A stretch of DNA of 39,227 bases, taken from positions 1 to 39,227 of the IMG/VR virus record IMGVR_UViG_3300045988_042791; one strand, written 5' to 3'. A program made the position numbers and the translations under genes. This document shows, in pieces, positions 1-39,227 of this stretch (within the stretch, counting starts at the first letter, position 1; each line of letters begins with the position of its first letter). The notes below the pieces were generated by a model, which did not search any database, had not been told where the DNA came from, and saw only the letters and a list, made by a program, of their open reading frames with translations. Origin of the DNA: a virus.

Positions 1-41
1 TCTGGCGGTTTCCAAAAGTGCCTCCAGCGGGACTCGAACCC
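1..41. repeat. attL core: 41-bp direct repeat identical to 39187-39227 (may extend beyond the window edges)
   Basis: Exact 41/41 match read at both ends. It carries a tRNA T-arm plus acceptor 3' half on the minus strand (GGGTTCGAGTCCCGCTGGAGGCA). Confidence 0.9.
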
Positions 42-2879: not shown

Positions 2880-3158
2880 TCAATCACGGCGCAGCGGATT
2901 GTAGGCCACGCCGAGACCGCTGGCGATGAAGCCGGCCACAGTCGAAATGTAGCCTCCGACCGCAGCGTCGCCGAAGGTCATGAAACCCAAGCCGACGCAT
3001 GAAGCGATGAGACCGGCAACGTAGACCACGGTGCGCACGCCCTTGGAAAAGACGGGCGTGTAAGCCGTCGGCGGCTGGTTGTCCTGACCATCCTCGCACT
3101 CGTTGGTCAGGTTGTTGACGGTGGTTTCCAAAGTCGTTGGCGCTGCATGTTGAGCCAT
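2880..3158 (-). CDS. Putative holin (two TM segments)
   Basis: 92 aa with two hydrophobic helices in the C-terminal half. Lies immediately downstream of the endolysin. AAGGGGGG RBS. Confidence 0.6.
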   Translation of the reverse strand: MAQHAAPTTLETTVNNLTNECEDGQDNQPPTAYTPVFSKGVRTVVYVAGLIASCVGLGFMTFGDAAVGGYISTVAGFIASGLGVAYNPLRRD

Positions 3159-3170
3159 ATTAAACCCCCC

Positions 3171-3971
3171 TTAGAATCGGTTTTGATTGAGTGCCGTCTG
3201 CAAGGCCCGAGCCGTACCAGGACCGAATGATGCGTCCTGCGCCAAGCCGTAGTGCGCTTGGATGGCGCGAATGGTGGCAGGGCCAAGCAGACCATCAACA
3301 CCACAGCCCAGGCGACGCTGCACGGCGCGGATCAGATCACTGCCGCCAGCACCGTAGCGAACCACGCTCGAATCGATTGCCGGACGCGCGTAAGTCCTGC
3401 CGTCAGGCACCTGCTGGCCGCTGATGACGCCATCCACCGAAGTACCCATCACCTGCTGCCAACGGCGCACCGTGGCCGGGCCGACATTGCCATCCACTGC
3501 GATGGCACCGGAATTTGCGGCTGGAGCGGAAGACTGGGCGCCCTGGTATCGCAGATAGCAATTCCACGGATAGTTGTAGTAGGCGCGGATGTTGGTTTCG
3601 CGGCCAGTCTGGTCACCAGCCCTGCCATACGCGGTGCCACGCTCGCTGATGGACGCCTGCGCGAGCTTGCCGCCGCCAAGATAGACGGCCACGTGGTGCA
3701 CGTCGTTGAGCAGGATGTCGCCCGGCTGCGGACTGCCGTTCGCGGGCAGACGGGTCCAGCCGCGACGGGTCAGATTGCCGCTCAGATTGCCGGTGTAGGT
3801 GGCCGTGCCGGTGTCGAAGCCCGCCTCACGCAGGCAGTGGATCACCAGACTGGAGCAGTCGCAATTACCCGCCGAAGCGTTGAAATTCCAACGGTCGGAC
3901 TGGCTGTAGCCGAGATTGGCGACTGCGCACCAGTAGCGCATGCGATTGATGAAAGTGCTTACGCTTGCCAT
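3171..3971 (-). CDS. Endolysin: NlpC/P60- or CHAP-like cysteine peptidase plus tandem peptidoglycan-binding repeats
   Basis: CDCSSLV...HHVAVYLGGG Cys/His pattern. C-terminal GPATVRRWQQVMG / GPATIRAIQAHYG / GPGTARALQTAL repeats resemble PG_binding_1. Confidence 0.85.
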   Translation of the reverse strand: MASVSTFINRMRYWCAVANLGYSQSDRWNFNASAGNCDCSSLVIHCLREAGFDTGTATYTGNLSGNLTRRGWTRLPANGSPQPGDILLNDVHHVAVYLGGGKLAQASISERGTAYGRAGDQTGRETNIRAYYNYPWNCYLRYQGAQSSAPAANSGAIAVDGNVGPATVRRWQQVMGTSVDGVISGQQVPDGRTYARPAIDSSVVRYGAGGSDLIRAVQRRLGCGVDGLLGPATIRAIQAHYGLAQDASFGPGTARALQTALNQNRF

Positions 3972-4165: not shown

Positions 4166-4252
4166 TCAGCGCATGTGAGCGCCGTGATTAAAAATGAGAA
4201 TGAGCGCGAGGAGAATCAGGTAGGCTCCTCCCGCGATGGCGAGGTGTGTCAT
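4166..4252 (-). CDS. 28-aa hydrophobic peptide (MTHLAIAGGAYLILLALILIFNHGAHMR)
   Basis: ATGA start/stop overlap with the upstream gene. Single TM helix. Too short for the ORF track. Confidence 0.35.
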   Translation of the reverse strand: MTHLAIAGGAYLILLALILIFNHGAHMR

Positions 4253-4638
4253 TGCCGTTCCTCCAAGTATTTTTCGGCGGCGTTGACTATCCAGCATTGC
4301 GCGTCGAGTTTTTCGAGCTTAGCCAGCTCGTATCGGACGGCCTCACTGTGGTCGTGGCTTTGGTCGCCGTAGATCAGGGAAATCAGCGTGTTTTTTATGG
4401 TGTCGCGGCAGAGTTCGTCCATGCGCTCGTCAAAGCGTTCCGTCCGCTCGCCTAATTGGCGGGTTTTGGCGAAATGCTGGGAAAGCACACTGTTATACGG
4501 CAAGCGCTCAGGATTGACGTGGGCATAAAGACCAGTAGCCAATGATTCGAGCGCCCCCGGCCAGATTTTGAGACATAGTGTGATTACCGCGCACGCGCCG
4601 CCCACACCACCAAACCCTGCTAGAAACGTTTGAAACAC
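4249..4638 (-). CDS. Membrane-anchored protein of unknown function (N-terminal TM plus helical soluble domain)
   Basis: 129 aa. The N-terminal GFGGVGGACAVITLCL segment is hydrophobic. Lies between the cassette array and the lysis genes. Confidence 0.65.
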   Translation of the reverse strand: MFQTFLAGFGGVGGACAVITLCLKIWPGALESLATGLYAHVNPERLPYNSVLSQHFAKTRQLGERTERFDERMDELCRDTIKNTLISLIYGDQSHDHSEAVRYELAKLEKLDAQCWIVNAAEKYLEERQ

Positions 4639-4659
4639 ATCACATCTCCTTGAAATCGT

Positions 4660-5052
4660 TTAATCTTTTGGCATGGTGTCGCCATCGAAATAATTGCCCG
4701 GCAATCCCAACGAGACGAGCTGCTGCCACTGGTCTTGAGGCACGCACAAGCCCTTGCTCAGATTGACCGTGCAATTGTTCAGCCCGACGAGAATGCCGTG
4801 AGTGGTGCTGGCGGCGGTGAAGACGTAATCCACGCGACCATTCGAACTGACCAGCCCACTATCACTGCCATTGGTGGTGAGACGCAAGCGCGGATTGTCG
4901 CCACTCGTGGACAGCATGTAACAGACGACGCTCACATGGTATTTCACGCCCGCCGTCAACCCCGTGAACGTGATGTCCGATGGTGTCGTGTTCGTCGTCT
5001 TGACGCTCACACCGTCTTTCGGCATGACGCAGGAATTCACGATGAAACTCAT
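4660..5052 (-). CDS. Cassette A: small beta-rich CBM-like or receptor-binding-like protein ending ...NYFDGDTMPKD
   Basis: 130 aa. GGGGGTGA RBS. Shares N-terminal xN(L/S)(C/W)xxP and C-terminal F-x-GDTMP motifs with cassettes B and C. Confidence 0.75.
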   Translation of the reverse strand: MSFIVNSCVMPKDGVSVKTTNTTPSDITFTGLTAGVKYHVSVVCYMLSTSGDNPRLRLTTNGSDSGLVSSNGRVDYVFTAASTTHGILVGLNNCTVNLSKGLCVPQDQWQQLVSLGLPGNYFDGDTMPKD

Positions 5053-5071
5053 GCCATCACCCCCGTAAGGG

Positions 5072-5440
5072 TTAGGCGAGCGGCATCGTGTCCCCGGTGA
5101 AATATCCGATGCTGTCGAGCAGGGTCTTGTTCGCCTGGTATTCGTCCCACGTGCAGATGAGCATGTTCGTCACTGTGACGGTCGGACTGCCTGACTTGAC
5201 GTGATAACTCATTGATATCGGATGGGAATTGTTGATGAGCATCTTGTAGCTGACACGTTGTCTTGCGTTGATGTCGCCATCCGCTCCGATTATCGAGATA
5301 GTGCCGCCTGTGACGTTCACCTCGACGCTGATCTGATATGTCGCCCCATTCACGCTCGGAAGGGTCGTGATATTCACCCACTTGTCGGCTTTCAGGGTGA
5401 TGGTCGAGGATGGGCTCGTGCATAGGTTCGTGACCATCAT
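5072..5440 (-). CDS. Cassette B: paralogous small CBM-like protein ending ...GYFTGDTMPLA
   Basis: 122 aa. This frame gives a beta-strand-like composition, whereas the overlapping 5049-5450 frame is Arg/His-rich. Confidence 0.75.
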   Translation of the reverse strand: MMVTNLCTSPSSTITLKADKWVNITTLPSVNGATYQISVEVNVTGGTISIIGADGDINARQRVSYKMLINNSHPISMSYHVKSGSPTVTVTNMLICTWDEYQANKTLLDSIGYFTGDTMPLA

Positions 5441-5467
5441 CGGACATCACCCGCCCGACGAATCGCC

Positions 5468-5896
5468 TTAATCGCGTGGCATCGTGTCGCCCGTGAAGAA
5501 GCCCGGAAGCCCCCCCCCGAGCGCCGCGTCATACGTGTCGGCGGCTTCCACGCTCAATTCGCTGATGGCCATACCGGAGGGGACGGCCAGGCGCGTGTCA
5601 TTGGCGGTCGGGGTGAAGCGGATCGTATGTTTCCCGACCGTCTGGGCACTTGGGTGTTCGCTCGTGCCGCCGGAAAAGATGCCGATGCTTTTATTCGTCG
5701 TATCGTTGCTGACGATCCTGAACGTGCACACGTATTCCACGCCGACCTCGCACGCGAAAGGCAGGTCGATGTATTCGCCTCTGGTGTTGGCCAGCGTGCC
5801 ACCGGTCATGTACTTCGATATGTCGCCGCCCTTTTTGACGACATGGAAGCCGGTGGGGTCGAACTTTGGGTTCAGCCACAGGTTAATCCTCTGCAT
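5468..5896 (-). CDS. Cassette C: paralogous small CBM-like protein ending ...GFFTGDTMPRD
   Basis: 142 aa. The N-terminus INLWLNPKFDPTG resembles the NLxxNPSFE start of actinophage minor-tail CBM-like domains. GGGAG RBS. Confidence 0.75.
   Translation of the reverse strand: MQRINLWLNPKFDPTGFHVVKKGGDISKYMTGGTLANTRGEYIDLPFACEVGVEYVCTFRIVSNDTTNKSIGIFSGGTSEHPSAQTVGKHTIRFTPTANDTRLAVPSGMAISELSVEAADTYDAALGGGLPGFFTGDTMPRD
5510..5518. repeat. C9 (G9 in coding sense) homopolymer inside cassette C, encoding GGG
   Basis: Counted directly in gaagCCCCCCCCCga. It lies 13 codons before the stop, just upstream of the conserved tail. Confidence 0.9.
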
Positions 5897-6053
5897 TCTC
5901 GTCTCCCTTCACGCTTTCGAGCACGTCGGCGGGAATCAATTTCATGGCCGCGTTGAGCTGACTGGTCAGGATTGCGATTTGCTTGTTGAGAGTGCCGATT
6001 TGCGCGGAAAGCGTGTCGATGACGTCGTTCGCGTCGGCTGGAATCTGAGTCAA
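5883..6053 (-). CDS. 56-aa coiled-coil-like small protein
   Basis: TTG start 5 nt after AAGGAGA. Heptad-like sequence TLSAQIGTLNKQIAILTSQLNAAMK. Its end overlaps the start of cassette C. Confidence 0.4.
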   Translation of the reverse strand: MTQIPADANDVIDTLSAQIGTLNKQIAILTSQLNAAMKLIPADVLESVKGDENAED

Positions 6054-6124: not shown

Positions 6125-6427
6125 TTAGTCGGCGGCGGTCATCGTGTCGATACGAGTAACCGCCTTCAATTCGTCCAAGGTGAGGGTGCGGCCGAGATTC
6201 GTCTTCACGTCCGTCAACGTGACGGACGTGCCGGAATCGTCGAACGTGGCGAGCACGCCACGCTGGTAGTCGCGCCACGATTCGGCGGTGCCGTCAGCGC
6301 TGGAAAACTCCAATCCCAAACGGCACAATTCCGCTCGCACCGACTCCTTCGGCGGACGCAAATCAAGCACGCCAGACAGCTCGGCAGGCGTGGTATCGGT
6401 AGTGGTCTCAGTGGTCACATCGGCCAT
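6125..6427 (-). CDS. Hypothetical protein (100 aa, acidic, Thr-rich N-terminus)
   Basis: The ATG at 6427 is preceded by AAGGAG. The longer ORF-track start lacks an RBS. Confidence 0.6.
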   Translation of the reverse strand: MADVTTETTTDTTPAELSGVLDLRPPKESVRAELCRLGLEFSSADGTAESWRDYQRGVLATFDDSGTSVTLTDVKTNLGRTLTLDELKAVTRIDTMTAAD

Positions 6428-6438
6428 AATCAATCTCC

Positions 6439-7023
6439 TTATTGTTGGTTGTTTTGAGGTCGTGGCATGAGGGATTGGTAAAATCTCTCCTCGCACTCGT
6501 CCAGATTTGATTGACTGGACTCGTCATTGAGGAAATCGTCCAATCCCTCAATGTCCTTGGTCACGGTCACGTCAATGCCACTCGACGGCTCCTCATCGGA
6601 GTCATCAGCCGCCAGTGTGGCAATGAGATTCGCGTCCGTCTCATTCGACATGACCGGCAGGTTCATGCCCTCACGCGCCTTATTCCGCGCGGCGGTAAGC
6701 GGGTCATTCAACACTTCCCCATCAGCCGCAAGCATGCTCACGCCGGTGGCGGAATCATTCAGCGCCGATTCAAGCGCCTCATACGCGCCTGTCCATACGC
6801 CGCGCCCCGTTTTCGGGTCGTACCGGCTCGTGTCCTCCTTGCCCTGCATGATTGCGGCGATCGCTTCACGGGTCGAAGCAAGGCCGAGCAGCGCCTTCCA
6901 CGAGACGAGCACGTCGATCGTGAACACGAAACTGTCCGACCCGTTTATGGGCGGATTGCAGCGGATAATGCAAAGCCCACTGTTCTCATCCGTTTCGAAA
7001 GTCGCAGACAAGATTTCCTCCAA
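6439..7023 (-). CDS. Hypothetical acidic protein downstream of the fibre gene (possible fibre assembly or accessory protein)
   Basis: 194 aa. Abuts the stop of the 1629-aa tail gene. No motif recognised. Confidence 0.7.
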   Translation of the reverse strand: MEEILSATFETDENSGLCIIRCNPPINGSDSFVFTIDVLVSWKALLGLASTREAIAAIMQGKEDTSRYDPKTGRGVWTGAYEALESALNDSATGVSMLAADGEVLNDPLTAARNKAREGMNLPVMSNETDANLIATLAADDSDEEPSSGIDVTVTKDIEGLDDFLNDESSQSNLDECEERFYQSLMPRPQNNQQ

Positions 7024-10000
7024 TCACTTGACCAAATAAGCCAGGAATTCCGCGTAAACATCCACCGGGCAAGGCTGGTCGGCGTTATACAGCTTCAATG
7101 TGAAGCCGCTCTGGCCGCCCGTGTTCATCGGGTGCGCGATGATGCCCGCCCATTGTGAATCCGCGTTCGCGACGACGTAATAGTGGCCGTATTTCGTCGG
7201 GCTGAACGTGCAATCGACTTGCATGGAAGCGCCGGTCGCAATCTTCGAGCCGGGATTCGGATACCACGCCTTCCACGCAGCCTGGGCATGGAACGTAAAA
7301 CGGTTCGCGATGCCGCCAAGATAGCCGCCGAGATACACGTATCCGGTGCCGATGTTCGCGCCGACTCCGACCTCGCCGTTCGCGTCTTGCGCTTCGAGCC
7401 AGCACTCCGAACCGTTCGCGCTATCGCCGGACAGAGTGAGGAAAGCGCTGCTTTTCTTGCTCTCGTCCGCCTCGTCGTAATCCGTGTTCGCCACGGCATG
7501 CACTCTGGATGTGACGCCGCCGCTGCCGGTACCGCCTTTCTTGCGCGGCTTCGATCTGAGAGACATGAACGCGGCAGGGTCGTTCTTGCTCACGTGTCCG
7601 CTCCACAAGTCCAGTTCGCCCATCGCGCCGACCTGATTCGACTGGATGACAGAAGCGATGGCCGGATGCGAAAAGTAGGCGGTGGACCCGTTGTAAGCGG
7701 GGAATTCGATGCCATCACCGGTGAAAGTCTCAGATCCGCCGATGATGTAGGTCTGATAATCCGGGCTGATGCGCACCCTGTGCCCGCTCGTGCGGGTTTG
7801 GAACGTGCCAGTCAGCAGATTCGACTTGCCTTCGCCGTCAAGATAGACGGTGCGATTGTGGTTGCTGTCCCACATTTGCAATGCGGTGCCGTTGAGCTTC
7901 ATGCCGGTGTTCTCGGCCTCGGAGCTTTGGAAGACGGCGCCTGTAAAGACGTAGCCTTTGAACTGGCCTGCCGCCACCTTGTCGGACGTGATGGTGCCAG
8001 CCGCGATCTTGACGGCCGTCACACTGTTTGCCGCGAGCTTGTCGGCGGTGATGGCACCAGTGACAATCTTGGACGCATTGACCGAATTAGCAGCCAATTT
8101 ATCCGCGTCCACCGCGCCAGCCGCCAAGGCAGCAGTGGTCACGGCATTAGCCGCAATCTCTCCGGCCTGAATCTTGTGGACGGTGAGCAGCGCCACGGTC
8201 ATATCCTCCGTGACCTTCAGCTTGCCCGTGGTCACGGAATTGGCTGCAATCTTGTCGGACGTGATGGCCAGTGCGACGATATTCCGCGCCTGCACCGAAT
8301 CAGCCGCCAATTTGCCAGCGGTCACCGCATCGGAAACCAGCTTCTCGGTCGTGACCGAGTTTGCCGCCAGCTTGTCCGCCGTGATGACATTGGCCTTGAC
8401 CTTTTCGGCGGTCACGGAATCCACGGCGAGATGCTTCGCGGCCACCGTGCCAGCAGCGAGGATGTTGTTCGCCACGAGGTCGAATGGCTCGAATCTCGTA
8501 CCGTCCCACGTCAGGACTTCCACCACACGATCGGACAAGGGCACCAAGACGCTCGGACTGTTGTTCGGAGCGCCCTGCCAGTAGGTGTAGAAGTCGGCCA
8601 AGAGGCTCGGTGAGTTGTTTTTCTCGCCTTTCCACCTCGTCCAATACTTCTGCGTGCGCCACCACATGTCACCCGGCTTCAAACCATCATGATTCGGTTC
8701 GTCCGGGCCACGGTAGATGAGATTCTTTCCGTCAGCAGTGGTCTGCGCCTTCTTCGCGGCGGCCTGCGCCTGATTCGCCTGCGCGGCGGCGTTGGCGGCT
8801 GTGGTCTGAGCCTTGTCAGCCGTTGATTGCGCCGTCTGCGCGGCAGCATGTGCCTTGACAGCGGCGTTGGCGGCATCGGTGGCCGCCTTGTCCGTCACCG
8901 CCACCCATGTGCTGCCGTTCCACCGTTTCGGCGTGTTAGCGCCACCGGTGGTGTCGATCCACAAGGTAGTCGGCTTGCGCATCGAAGCGTCCGGCGCAGT
9001 GGACTGGATGAGCACGTCGGCCTTGCCGTTAGCCACGCCAGCGGCGGCGGCAGCAGCCGTATTCGCCTTCCTCGCGGCATTGGCCGCGTCCGTGGCGGAC
9101 TGTGCCGCACTGTCGGCGGTGGCTTTCGCCTGCGTGGCCACACTCGACGCATTCGAGGCGGTGGCCTTGGCGTTGGCCGCATCGGTCTTCGCGGTGGAAG
9201 CGTCCGATTTGGCGGCATTGGCCGAAGCATTGGCCGTGTTCGCCAGTGTCTCGGCATTGCCAGCGGTCTTCTTCGCGCTCTCGGCGGCGGTCTGCGCGGC
9301 GTCGGCGGCGCTCTTCGCCTGACCTGCGGTCGCGGTCGCGCTCTTGGCGGCAGCGGTAGCCGCATTGGCGGTATCCTGCGCGGTCTTCGCCGCACCATTG
9401 GCCGTGTCAGCTGTGCCTTGAGCGTTCTTGGCGGCGGCAGCGGCATTCTCGGCGGTCTTCTTGGCGTCGGTGGTCTTCGCGGCGTTATCCGCGATGTCGG
9501 ACTTCGCCTGAGCGATTTCGTCGGCATTGCGCTCCACGTCGGCATAGCCCATGTGGTTCCACGCGGAGCCATCCCAGACAAGCGTCTCAATCACGCGATC
9601 CGACAGCGGCACGAGCGCGGAAGGAGAATTATTGGCTTCGCCCTGCCAGTAGGTGTAGAAGTCGGCCAAGAGGCTCGGGCTGTTGTTTTTCTCGCCTTTC
9701 CACCTCGTCCAATATTTCTGCGTCTTGAGCCACAGGTCGCCGACGATCAGATTGTCCTTCGGCTCGTCAGGCCCACGGAAAGTGTGATTCTTTGAGTGGG
9801 CTTCGGCATACGCTTGAGCCGCCGACTCCTTCGCCTTGCTGATCTCGCCATTCGCGGTGGTCAGGTCGCTCTTGGTCTGCGCGATATCCTTCCGGGCCTG
9901 CGTCAGGTCGGTCTTGGCTTGAGCGAGCGTCTGATTCGCCGCGTCGAGATTAGACTTGTTGGCTTGGATGTCCTTCTGCGCCTGCGTCAGCTTCGCCGCA

Positions 10001-11913
10001 TTGTCCTTCAACGCCGTCTGATTGTCAGCCAAATCCTTTTGAATCTGCTTGACCTCATCAGGCGAGACGGCGGAAGCCACGGTCACAGTGGCAATCGCAG
10101 ACCAGTCAGACTTATTGCCAGCATGGTCCACGGAGCGCAGCGCATAAGAGTGCTGTGAGCCAGCCGTCAAACCGGTGACGACGTAAGCGCCCTGCCCCGA
10201 CTGATTGGCGCTGATGACCTGCATTCCAGCGGCATTGACGCCCTCGCACACCTCGATATGGTCGAAATCCGATTCCATCGACGCGCCAGTGGATGTCTTG
10301 CCGTCCCAGTGGACGGTCACCACGCCTAGCTTGGATGAGACTGTCGGCTTGGAGGGCACTGAGCACGGCGTCGTATCGGATTCGACGGTGGCCACGACGA
10401 TGCTCGACCATTCGCCAAGCTTGTCCGAATACGTCGGCACAGCCCTGACGCGCACCTCGATTTGTGTGCCACAGTCAAGACCGCCGAAGCCGAGCTGCGT
10501 CTTATCGGTCGTGCCCGCCGAATGCCACGGCGCACCATCCACATGCTTGCGCCACTCGATGGCGTAATTGCTGATTTCGATGGCCGTGTTATTCGTGGCT
10601 TCGGTCACAGCAGACCACATGGCGGTGGCCAAGCCGTGTGCGAAACCGTCCGAGCCAATGTAGGCGTCGGTCTGCACGACCAGACCCTGCGGCGCCTTCG
10701 GCACGCGATGATCATGGTCAGTGGAGACAGTGGTTCCGCTCTCACTGCCGGCCAATGCCGCGCCACCGGTGATGCCCTTGATTTTCTTCGCCTGACGCAC
10801 CGAAGCGTCATACTTAATATCATTCAGAGCGATTGAGCAGGATAGGCCCTCGTTCTGGCGCATGCTCAGGTCGATTTCCTGCACGCGCACCTTCTCGCCG
10901 TGAGCCACGGTAGGGGCGGTAATCCAGTCACCGGCGTGATAGTCAATGAGCGGCAGATTATCCACATTCGCGGTCACCAGATCGCGCGTGTACTGGCCAC
11001 GCACTCGCGCCGCGTCATCCAAAGTGCTCTGCATGAATGCCTGGGCGGTGTCCTTATCTGACACGCCGCCCTGGCTGCTGTAGCTTTCCCACTTGCCCCA
11101 CGGAGTCGGCGCGGCCGGATTATCCATGCGGAAGAGCAGGTTATTGTCTCCCTCGACGAGGATGGTGGACGCGAGGTCAGCGATGGACTCCTCGAAGGGT
11201 GCTTCGCTGATGTCACGCGCAAGCTGCAGCACAATACTCTTGCTCAGGTCGCGGCTCAAGGCGGTGCTGTCGGCATTCCACAGCTTGAGCGTCCTGCCGG
11301 ACGTGCGCCAGTCGCAGCCGCCACCATTGACGAGAGCACTCAGGATGGTCTGCAGATCCGTGCCAAGAGAATAATAGAGCGTGTACTTTTTCGCCCATGC
11401 CGCGCCGCCTGCGTCCTTGGCGGTGCCGAAGCCCAAGGTCAGACCAGTGGCCACGCCACCACGCGCCCGGTTTTCGTCAAGCAGGGTCTTGAGAATCGTG
11501 CCCGGATTGGACGAATAAAATGGCCTTTTACCCTTGTTATCGCCATCGGCGATGAGGTGCGAGGAATCATTGTTTTCCGCCTTTGACAGCAGCCAGCCAA
11601 TCGACTGGCCACTGTAGGTGACGGTCTTGGTGCGGTCATCCGTCTTACCGGAGCGGCCCGTGATGACGAATCGCGCATTATCCGGCTCCCTGAAGCCACT
11701 ACCGTCCGAGACTTCCACTGCCACTTCGAGGCCGTCCGTAAGCTCGCGGTCGAAAGCCTGAGCGTCACCGGACAGCAGCGAGTATTCGATGCTGATTGCG
11801 CCATCATCATTGTGGAGCATGGACGCGCTGAAGCTCACCGGCTCGGCCAGCACACCGAGTCGGTCACCGAATGGACGATAGGCCACGAGACGCGCGTGCA
11901 AAGTCTTTGCCAT
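7024..11913 (-). CDS. Tal-like tail tip/fibre protein (1629 aa) with FN3-like, Ala-rich coiled-coil, duplicated module and fibre-repeat regions
   Basis: Positioned after Dit. Long Ala/Thr/Gln coiled-coil tracts. ANSVT-x-x-K(L/I) fibre-type repeats. An internal 75-aa module is present twice. Confidence 0.9.
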   Translation of the reverse strand: MAKTLHARLVAYRPFGDRLGVLAEPVSFSASMLHNDDGAISIEYSLLSGDAQAFDRELTDGLEVAVEVSDGSGFREPDNARFVITGRSGKTDDRTKTVTYSGQSIGWLLSKAENNDSSHLIADGDNKGKRPFYSSNPGTILKTLLDENRARGGVATGLTLGFGTAKDAGGAAWAKKYTLYYSLGTDLQTILSALVNGGGCDWRTSGRTLKLWNADSTALSRDLSKSIVLQLARDISEAPFEESIADLASTILVEGDNNLLFRMDNPAAPTPWGKWESYSSQGGVSDKDTAQAFMQSTLDDAARVRGQYTRDLVTANVDNLPLIDYHAGDWITAPTVAHGEKVRVQEIDLSMRQNEGLSCSIALNDIKYDASVRQAKKIKGITGGAALAGSESGTTVSTDHDHRVPKAPQGLVVQTDAYIGSDGFAHGLATAMWSAVTEATNNTAIEISNYAIEWRKHVDGAPWHSAGTTDKTQLGFGGLDCGTQIEVRVRAVPTYSDKLGEWSSIVVATVESDTTPCSVPSKPTVSSKLGVVTVHWDGKTSTGASMESDFDHIEVCEGVNAAGMQVISANQSGQGAYVVTGLTAGSQHSYALRSVDHAGNKSDWSAIATVTVASAVSPDEVKQIQKDLADNQTALKDNAAKLTQAQKDIQANKSNLDAANQTLAQAKTDLTQARKDIAQTKSDLTTANGEISKAKESAAQAYAEAHSKNHTFRGPDEPKDNLIVGDLWLKTQKYWTRWKGEKNNSPSLLADFYTYWQGEANNSPSALVPLSDRVIETLVWDGSAWNHMGYADVERNADEIAQAKSDIADNAAKTTDAKKTAENAAAAAKNAQGTADTANGAAKTAQDTANAATAAAKSATATAGQAKSAADAAQTAAESAKKTAGNAETLANTANASANAAKSDASTAKTDAANAKATASNASSVATQAKATADSAAQSATDAANAARKANTAAAAAAGVANGKADVLIQSTAPDASMRKPTTLWIDTTGGANTPKRWNGSTWVAVTDKAATDAANAAVKAHAAAQTAQSTADKAQTTAANAAAQANQAQAAAKKAQTTADGKNLIYRGPDEPNHDGLKPGDMWWRTQKYWTRWKGEKNNSPSLLADFYTYWQGAPNNSPSVLVPLSDRVVEVLTWDGTRFEPFDLVANNILAAGTVAAKHLAVDSVTAEKVKANVITADKLAANSVTTEKLVSDAVTAGKLAADSVQARNIVALAITSDKIAANSVTTGKLKVTEDMTVALLTVHKIQAGEIAANAVTTAALAAGAVDADKLAANSVNASKIVTGAITADKLAANSVTAVKIAAGTITSDKVAAGQFKGYVFTGAVFQSSEAENTGMKLNGTALQMWDSNHNRTVYLDGEGKSNLLTGTFQTRTSGHRVRISPDYQTYIIGGSETFTGDGIEFPAYNGSTAYFSHPAIASVIQSNQVGAMGELDLWSGHVSKNDPAAFMSLRSKPRKKGGTGSGGVTSRVHAVANTDYDEADESKKSSAFLTLSGDSANGSECWLEAQDANGEVGVGANIGTGYVYLGGYLGGIANRFTFHAQAAWKAWYPNPGSKIATGASMQVDCTFSPTKYGHYYVVANADSQWAGIIAHPMNTGGQSGFTLKLYNADQPCPVDVYAEFLAYLVK
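8571..8655. repeat. Copy 1 of an 85-bp near-identical direct repeat inside the Tal gene
   Basis: Matches 9639-9723 with 4 mismatches. The offset is exactly 1068 bp (356 codons). Confidence 0.85.
9639..9723. repeat. Copy 2 of the 85-bp direct repeat inside the Tal gene
   Basis: See 8571-8655. Both copies encode KYWTRWKGEKNNSPSLLADFYTYWQG. Confidence 0.85.
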
Positions 11914-39175: not shown

Positions 39176-39197
39176 AAACCGCCATTTCTGGCGGTTT
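39176..39197 (-). terminator. Rho-independent terminator of the tRNA gene, half phage DNA and half att core
   Basis: Minus sense reads AAACCGCCA-GAAA-UGGCGGUUU followed by UCCUUUUAUUU. Confidence 0.7.
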
Positions 39198-39227
39198 CCA
39201 AAAGTGCCTCCAGCGGGACTCGAACCC
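39187..39227. repeat. attR core (identical to 1-41)
   Basis: Exact 41-bp match. Confidence 0.9.
39204..39227 (-). tRNA. 3' end of a host tRNA gene (T-arm and acceptor 3' strand); the body lies beyond the window
   Basis: GGGTTCGAGTCCCGC-TGGAGGC-A on the minus strand. Isotype cannot be determined from this fragment. Confidence 0.6.

Follow-up and report, generated by a model that had tools for sequence, protein, structure and literature searches.

Exchangeable, putatively lectin-like cassette genes and a candidate poly-G phase-variation site in the tail module of a Bifidobacterium prophage

Cassette exchange and switching by poly-G tracts are both known from other biological systems, and three of these come close to the locus considered here. 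This is an array of three small tandem genes, cassettes C, B and A, which occupy slots 1, 2 and 3, respectively, in the order in which they follow the tail-fibre gene on the minus strand of IMG/VR virus record IMGVR_UViG_3300045988_042791. The whole of this record, 39,227 nucleotides (nt) in length, was analysed and is referred to below as the window. Fletchervirus phages of Campylobacter have been reported to carry hypermutable polyG tracts (Sorensen et al. 2021, Cell Rep 35:109214; cited in PMC10877375). As far as the cited account describes them, these resemble the present case in that a phage gene belonging to the host-recognition region contains the G run, and frame shifts caused by its length give rise, in the phages cited, to phenotypically mixed populations. 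Relative to that same account, the present locus differs in its host, a Gram-positive actinobacterium, in its phage, a temperate siphovirus, and in its protein family, which is unrelated. Moreover, the tract found here is at the extreme 3' end of its gene, so that a change of frame removes only a conserved tail of 13 amino acids (aa), and it is part of a three-cassette array in which the shifted frames end on the next start codons, an arrangement known to us from its nucleotide sequence.

A G tract is also the basis of an ON/OFF switch by replication slippage in sortase-dependent pilus genes of Bifidobacterium (Penno et al. 2022, PMC9187656). These pilus tracts (G10-12) are found in the same host genus, are likewise intragenic and are heterogeneous in length in clonal cultures, and their frame decides whether a surface structure is made (PMC9187656). 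Unlike the tract described here, which is located at the 3' end of a prophage tail-module gene and whose lengths are compared between contigs, they are located near the 5' end of chromosomal pilin genes. The third system is the Rin shufflon present in prophages of B. breve and B. longum with its flanking tyrosine invertase (Mavrich et al. 2018, PMC6109161). There, promoterless Rv segments with 11-bp rix sites (TTCCCTAACCC) upstream of them become joined through inversion to the constant Rc gene (PMC6109161). As in Rin, the array consists of tandem, small and diverged genes in the tail module of a bifidobacterial prophage, with short repeats at cassette boundaries, and can be read as a set of variable receptor-binding parts. 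Unlike in Rin, the cassettes are entire genes, each with a start codon of its own, orientation is the same in more than 100 loci, and neither rix enrichment nor inverted repeats are apparent. As to the proteins themselves, the cassettes share a predicted beta-sandwich fold class and an N-terminal N-L/W-x-x-N/D-P motif with carbohydrate-binding modules (CBM) of the CBM4_9 and CBM6 types and with CBM-like domains in tail and receptor-binding proteins of Gram-positive phages. In contrast to these, they are stand-alone proteins of 120-170 aa and not domains, they reach template-modelling (TM) scores of only 0.4-0.57, and their C-terminal helix and GDTMP tail have no counterpart in such modules.

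The best explanation of the region is that it forms the distal portion of the module for host recognition (tail tip) in a siphovirus prophage of the Bifidobacterium adolescentis group. Within it, we consider it reasonably probable that the three genes form an array of three slots for exchangeable, lectin-like proteins of the tail module, and that slot 1 phase-varies through slipped-strand mispairing. The searchable literature yielded no description of the cassette family, nor of any polyG switch in prophages of bifidobacteria.

A poly-G tract at the end of the slot-1 gene

The initial annotation of this DNA had proposed a set of interchangeable receptor-binding heads docking through a common tail, and had overlooked the poly-G tract in slot 1 (Table 1). 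If this tract acts as a switch, the heads would not simply be a static set. The tract is the sole G/C homopolymer of at least 8 in the window. Relatives of the array were drawn from 39 and 80 IMG/VR loci and from several ENA/Logan contigs; tract counts refer to 70 distinct loci. Homologues of C come in three C-terminal versions, which diverge exactly at Gly-Gly-Gly. The constant 3' end of slot 1 reads ADTYDxAxGGG-LPGFF[TS]GDTMPxx in translation, and each of the nine slot-1 core types carries a pure G run at this one place. With GGG being the rarest Gly codon in the prophage (6.7% of Gly codons), three in a row would therefore be expected with a probability of only P ~3e-4.

The length of the G run ranges from 7 to 12 in the relatives. 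The resulting reading frame is ON in 29 of the 70 loci, 'short OFF' in 27 and 'long OFF' in 14, which corresponds to slot-1 products of 142/143 aa with the tail, 152/153 aa without the tail, and 281-283 aa by read-through, respectively. Differences in tract length also separate loci that are otherwise nearly or fully identical. One pair (L117/L119) has no other differences over 6271 aligned nt, yet carries G9 and G8; a second (L072/L073; 5.7 kb aligned, 4 mismatches) carries G9 and G10, and a third (L011/L031; 7.3 kb aligned, 11 mismatches) G9 and G12. Altogether, twelve locus pairs have at most 2 mismatches in 600 nt of flanking sequence and yet differ in tract length. The OFF-state products form large protein clusters (549 and 691 members), and an OFF tract length is also present in a genome from an isolate, B. 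ruminantium DSM 6489. Slot 1 therefore combines three sequence hallmarks of a simple-sequence contingency locus, i.e. an intragenic tract of about 7 bases or longer, length polymorphism in near-identical sequences, and an intact versus a truncated or altered product.

Several IMG/VR contigs (L028, L037 and L038-L040) end inside slot 1. Three of these break off 54 nt after the slot-1 start, where constant gives way to variable sequence, and another stops about 15 nt short of the G run. Judging from the position of these ends, they would be expected assembly breaks if several variants coexist in a sample.

A small protein family, its exchange and its loss

The three cassettes are minus-strand open reading frames (ORFs) at the coordinates, and with exactly the terminal peptides, quoted in the initial annotation, and all three proteins end in F-x-GDTMP-xx, i.e. 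two residues after TMP. Each start codon is preceded by a G-rich Shine-Dalgarno-like sequence, in agreement with the assignment of a separate ribosome-binding site to each cassette. A 14-nt motif, GGCATSGTGTCSCC, which simply encodes G-D-T-M-P by preferred codons, occurs in exactly three copies, one in each cassette and nowhere else in the window, as had been reported; about 0.12 copies are expected by chance, and three were reached in 0 of 100 shuffles.

The interiors of the proteins had been described as essentially unalignable by eye. With profiles they do align: the family could be aligned over its whole length with 20 diverse members, and in profile-profile comparison with hhalign, slot 2 is related to slot 3 with 98.9% probability (E = 3e-17) and to slot 1 with 95.9% probability (E = 6e-9). 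The proposed paralogy is thereby supported, and by sequence comparison the three cassettes are true paralogues belonging to one small, unnamed family. A profile search with the three cassettes against 1.84 billion representatives retrieved only 43 clusters at 50% identity. Almost all of them represent free-standing proteins of 115-153 aa, apart from a 282-aa frameshift fusion and a weakly matching fn3-repeat protein. Since only clusters of small proteins were found, the family is not detectable at the sequence level inside large actinophage tail proteins; it consists almost only of stand-alone proteins of 115-170 aa in Bifidobacterium prophages. Clustering at 90% identity yields 1412 relatives for slots 2 and 3 and 1298 for slot 1, and those that bear a name are hypothetical proteins from Bifidobacterium or uncultured phage. 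Scans of the three cassettes and their neighbours against Pfam and PHROGs gave nothing usable. In particular, the Pfam family CBM_4_9 (PF02018) does not match the three proteins of the window even at E <= 1, while it matches 6 of 128 slot-1 relatives at E <= 0.01 (best E = 4.1e-6). Among 50,697 phage records searched with C and B by tblastn, only an unannotated faecal contig (MT836445) was found, and the part shared with Bifidobacterium phage PMBT6 is the region of the 129-aa gene only. In one slot-3 (A-type) cluster, P0122, the protein is frameshifted near its C-terminus, loses the GDTMP tail and continues in the frame of the window ORF 4640-4774; a homopolymer is not evident at that site.

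Clues on the fold come from an AlphaFold2 model of B based on 126 sequences (mean predicted local distance difference test score, pLDDT, 81.9; predicted TM score, pTM, 0.71), in which residues 12-97 form a beta-sandwich and residues 98-111 two short helices, followed by a tail of low confidence. The tail is unstructured in this monomer model, as expected of a docking peptide. Foldseek comparisons of the model gave matches that are weak yet consistent with one another. Those in the PDB are CBM4, CBM6, CBM22 and CBM29, the TNF-like lectin PLTL and the P5 head of PRD1 (TM 0.4-0.49). Comparison with BFVD returned CBM-like domains of tail and receptor-binding proteins from Gram-positive phages (TM up to 0.57), including minor tail proteins of Rhodococcus, Arthrobacter and Streptomyces phages. 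The model of B thus points to a beta-sandwich with weak resemblance to the carbohydrate-binding modules of phage tail proteins. The AlphaFold2 model of C (mean pLDDT 57.5) is usable only as a 'beta-rich core'. The CBM-like domain assigned by the initial annotation is borne out to this extent, by weak beta-sandwich matches for B that do include actinophage minor tail proteins, but the NLxxNP...YFDG signature that it had placed within the large forms of such proteins was not seen at the sequence level.

Gene order is the same in all relatives: fibre, a protein of about 190 aa, one of about 100 aa, a 56-aa protein, slots 1, 2 and 3, a 129-aa protein, lysin and holin. Against this constant background the cassettes vary. 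With types defined as clusters at 60% identity, 9 slot-1, 4 slot-2 and 4 slot-3 types were found in 14 observed combinations, so that the cassettes assort independently; slot 3 is the most frequently swapped after slot 1. Comparison of related prophages hence confirms the exchange of cassettes that had been proposed. The loss of cassettes by recombination at the repeats, also foreseen, is documented by two loci (L127 and L128) with arrays of two cassettes, in which the junction lies inside the tail repeat GGGGA[CT]ACGATGCC, between copies 1 and 2; slot 2 has therefore been deleted.

Other modes of variation were considered and rejected. As already concluded from the common orientation of the cassettes, the array is not a shufflon: cassettes are co-oriented in all arrays (more than 100 loci), and there are no inverted copies of the tail repeat in the window. 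No invertase adjoins the array, which is flanked by the genes of the 56-aa and 129-aa proteins and by those for lysis, and the integrase is the sole recombinase identified, although not every ORF of the window was scanned. A Rin-type system in particular is not indicated, with 4 matches to the rix motif at up to 2 mismatches versus 4.9 expected, and neither invertase nor inverted repeats. A diversity-generating retroelement was likewise discarded, as a repeat search of the window revealed no pair of template and variable repeats and no long near-identical repeat involving the cassettes.

A pattern scan of genome contigs returned only 3 loci, one of them a chance match of 21 nt in an unrelated metagenome-assembled genome (MAG) labelled 'Deltaproteobacteria', the flanks of which are unrelated. 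A contig that had been assigned to an uncultured Collinsella MAG contains the slot-1 3' segment, which probably reflects either a binning error or a wider host range.

Proposed mechanism and competing explanations

In the model that we favour, each slot would hold a small, stand-alone, single-domain beta-sandwich protein of one family, with a variable surface-forming core between conserved ends. These ends are a first strand with the pattern I-T/V-N-L..P and a C-terminal helix followed by a presumably flexible Y/F-F-x-G-D-T-M-P tail. The cassettes would act as lectin-like accessory or receptor-binding proteins, and would attach to one constant partner in the virion through their conserved ends. 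Variation would proceed on two time scales. On the slow one, recombination at the conserved ends would exchange or remove whole cassettes; on the fast one, replication slippage at a hypermutable poly-G tract would keep (ON) or remove (OFF) the tail of slot 1. Given such slippage, one lysogenic clone would be expected to give off a mixture of particles, some carrying a slot-1 protein able to dock and others lacking one, and recognition of host cells by the particles would probably vary accordingly.

Several points weigh against this model. We infer, from genomic position and fold, that the cassette proteins are located in the virion and bind glycans, and their docking partner is only a candidate. 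The fold matches are weak (mostly TM < 0.6, E ~1e-4 to 1e-3), and the slot-1 model is poor, at the pLDDT given above. No cultured phage record carries the family. All tract lengths derive from assembled Illumina contigs, and G tracts are error-prone in sequencing (PMC9187656). Finally, a tail-less slot-1 protein might still work, in which case ON and OFF would be the wrong description.

A more elaborate explanation builds on where the shifted frames of slot 1 end. Frame 0 terminates 24 nt before slot 2. The short-OFF frame ends on a TGA that overlaps the slot-2 ATG, and the long-OFF frame runs without a stop across the whole of slot 2 to a TGA at 5049-5051 that overlaps the slot-3 ATG. The frame of a single, 3'-terminal poly-G tract could accordingly set the relative output of all three cassettes, as a selector with three states. 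At a first tract length, slot 1 would gain its docking tail and ribosomes would stop 24 nt before slot 2; at a second, termination on the ATGA of slot 2 would couple translation of slot 2; at a third, ribosomes would cross slot 2, thereby occluding it, stop on the ATGA of slot 3 and couple slot 3. In favour of such a selector, the point at which each of the three frames terminates is defined with respect to the start codons that follow, whatever the slot type, and the +2 frame of slot 2 is conspicuously open. It is stop-free in essentially all distinct sequences (66, of three types that are ~45% identical), where shuffling of synonymous codons predicts 2.4-3.7 stops (P 0.003-0.07 per sequence). 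By type, stops per 100 codons in this frame number 0-0.04 for slot 2, versus 2.2-7.3 for slot 1 and 0.9-3.9 for slot 3, and a 135-aa cassette is closed, with 5-6 stops in the +2 frame, whenever it is last in the array. This position-specific openness of slot 2 suggests selection, and as the long-OFF read-through peptide resembles non-coding translation, openness itself would be the selected trait.

The same resemblance to non-coding translation also counts against a functional selector. In addition, each cassette has its own Shine-Dalgarno-like sequence, so that coupling may be irrelevant; the slot-2 types are related, and their open frame may be partly inherited; the shuffling control ignores dinucleotide bias at codon boundaries; and the evidence for the arrangement is confined here to sequence. 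We regard the selector as possible but unlikely, because of the separate Shine-Dalgarno-like sites and the imperfect null model. The alternative-frame ORF of slot 2, whose separate ATG lies 10 nt upstream of that of slot 2 and right after the Shine-Dalgarno-like sequence, was also considered as an independent gene and found unlikely, its peptide being non-coding-like.

A simpler explanation would see in the array a static set of interchangeable receptor-binding heads, with the G run encoding a Gly3 linker whose variation has no biological role. Paralogy, fold class, conserved tail, and the exchange and loss of cassettes would be accounted for in this way. It is hard to reconcile, however, with a pure G run kept in nine unrelated-looking cores despite the use of the rarest Gly codon, with 59% of loci being out of frame, and with the tract being the only difference between otherwise identical contigs, and we therefore hold it to be doubtful.

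The cassettes could also be tail-fibre assembly chaperones or transient caps, comparable to Tfa of Mu and P2, in which case they would not serve the mature particle in receptor binding. In Mu and P1, the Tfa cassettes are small and variable, as are the proteins encoded here, which moreover follow directly downstream of the fibre gene. But there are three paralogues instead of one, their CBM-like beta-sandwich matches the binding domains of phage tail proteins, and no similarity to Tfa or other chaperone families was apparent in Pfam or PHROGs, which makes such a role improbable. Somewhat different in kind is the idea of non-structural accessory proteins, expressed late or from the prophage, with functions in superinfection exclusion, host-surface modification or lysis. 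The link of the cassettes to the virion is a putative one, the array adjoins the lysis cassette, and its high turnover is typical of accessory genes. Against this, neither a signal peptide nor a membrane segment can be seen in the cassette sequences, the genes are co-oriented with the tail genes and tightly packed or overlapping, and the fold matches mostly tail and receptor-binding domains, so that we consider accessory functions very improbable. Lastly, homopolymer artefacts of sequencing or assembly, which are documented for G tracts in Illumina data (PMC9187656) and could in principle affect a data set made up entirely of assembled contigs, are a highly improbable source of the length differences, given a range of 7-12 G across many independent assemblies, several sources and one isolate genome, large protein clusters for each frame, conservation of the run against codon bias, and the ordered nature of the alternative frames.

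Genomic setting and significance

Identical 41-nt direct repeats are located at both ends of the window (1-41 and 39187-39227) and contain a sequence, GGGACTCGAACCC, that resembles a tRNA T-arm; ARAGORN found no complete tRNA in the window. These repeats are most likely attL and attR, and the window therefore comprises exactly one prophage. The array is part of a long minus-strand late operon, and lies between the 1629-aa fibre gene and the lysis genes (Table 1).

Table 1. Coordinates of the cassette array, its repeats and reading frames, and of other genes in the prophage.
Feature	Position	Strand	Remarks
Poly-G tract	5510..5518	-	9 G on coding strand, codons GGG GGG GGG, directly upstream of slot-1 tail; putative slipped-strand phase-variation site
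Slot-1 cassette C	5468..5896	-	142 aa; variable, predicted beta-sandwich core and constant 3' end; ON frame here; from ORF and translation
Slot-2 cassette B	5072..5440	-	122 aa; predicted beta-sandwich, two short helices, YFTGDTMPLA tail
Slot-3 cassette A	4660..5052	-	130 aa; NYFDGDTMPKD tail
Tail-coding repeat, copy 1	5478..5491	-	GDTMP of slot 1
Tail-coding repeat, copy 2	5082..5095	-	GDTMP of slot 2
Tail-coding repeat, copy 3	4670..4683	-	GDTMP of slot 3
Stop-free +2 frame across whole slot 2	5049..5450	-	'Long OFF'; entered with one G too many or two too few
TGA ending 'short OFF' frame	5437..5439	-	Product of 152-153 aa; overlaps slot-2 ATG as ATGA
Tyrosine integrase	56-1225
Holin-like gene	2880-3158
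Endolysin	3171-3971
129-aa protein	4249..4638	-	Hydrophobic N-terminus; follows array, then endolysin and holin-like gene
56-aa protein	5883..6053	-	Coiled-coil-like; 3' end overlaps slot-1 start by 14 nt
~100-aa protein	6125..6427	-	Constant; ends in RIDTMTAAD
194-aa protein	6439..7023	-	Constant
1629-aa protein	7024..11913	-	Tail fibre/Tal-like; directly upstream of module

Three ORFs (194, ~100 and 56 aa), and not two as initially annotated, separate the fibre gene from cassette C. The 56-aa protein, with weak matches to LPP-like coiled coils, is 89-95% identical across lineages whose cassettes differ completely, and is therefore a candidate for a constant stalk or adaptor of the cassettes. 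The 129-aa protein is also 95% conserved in a lineage with different cassettes (L120). The ~100-aa protein was rejected as a fourth member of the family (hhalign probability 0.4%). Its C-terminal RIDTMTAAD is similar to the tail of the cassettes, GDTM[PT]xx, which takes the form GDTMTRA in one slot-3 type; this likeness of short peptides may be due to chance or to a shared docking peptide.

The 1629-aa fibre/Tal protein has weak fn3 and coiled-coil matches. Its gene contains an internal duplication of 155 nt (8519-8673 and 9587-9741; 79% identity), which corresponds to two '...YWTRWKGEKNNSPSLLADFYTYWQG...' modules around a long Ala/Thr/Lys-rich stretch of coiled-coil-like sequence. From their sequence, these modules could be repeated docking sites.

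A perfect tandem repeat of 15 nt x 5 occurs at 1991-2067, between the integrase and the lysis genes. The plus-strand ORF at 1819-2661 has an Arg-rich translation that is not protein-like, and the real gene is therefore probably the minus-strand ORF 1930-2646, in which the repeat would encode a repeat of 5 aa. A second homopolymer, G7, lies close to this tandem repeat, at 2650-2656.

Bifidobacteria are key commensals of the gut, and their phages are hard to propagate in the laboratory, plaque-forming hosts being rare. If cassette exchange and a mutational ON/OFF switch indeed act together on the array, particles would be heterogeneous, which could help explain erratic infectivity. The putative switch also offers a testable handle, as mutants with a locked G run can be built. 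An unnamed family of about 2700 clusters at 90% identity is defined here, and the GDTMP peptide conserved at the C-terminus of its members may be a portable docking tag. What is possibly new is the multi-gene translational twist. If the selector with three states were real, replication slippage would set the combination of three lectin-like tail proteins on each particle, and the three-frame arrangement, if functional, would represent a novel form of translational control in which a single repeat tract governs several genes. For the slot-1 switch that we favour, the implication is that slipped-strand phase variation of phage recognition proteins would extend from Campylobacter phages to temperate phages of actinobacteria in the human gut.

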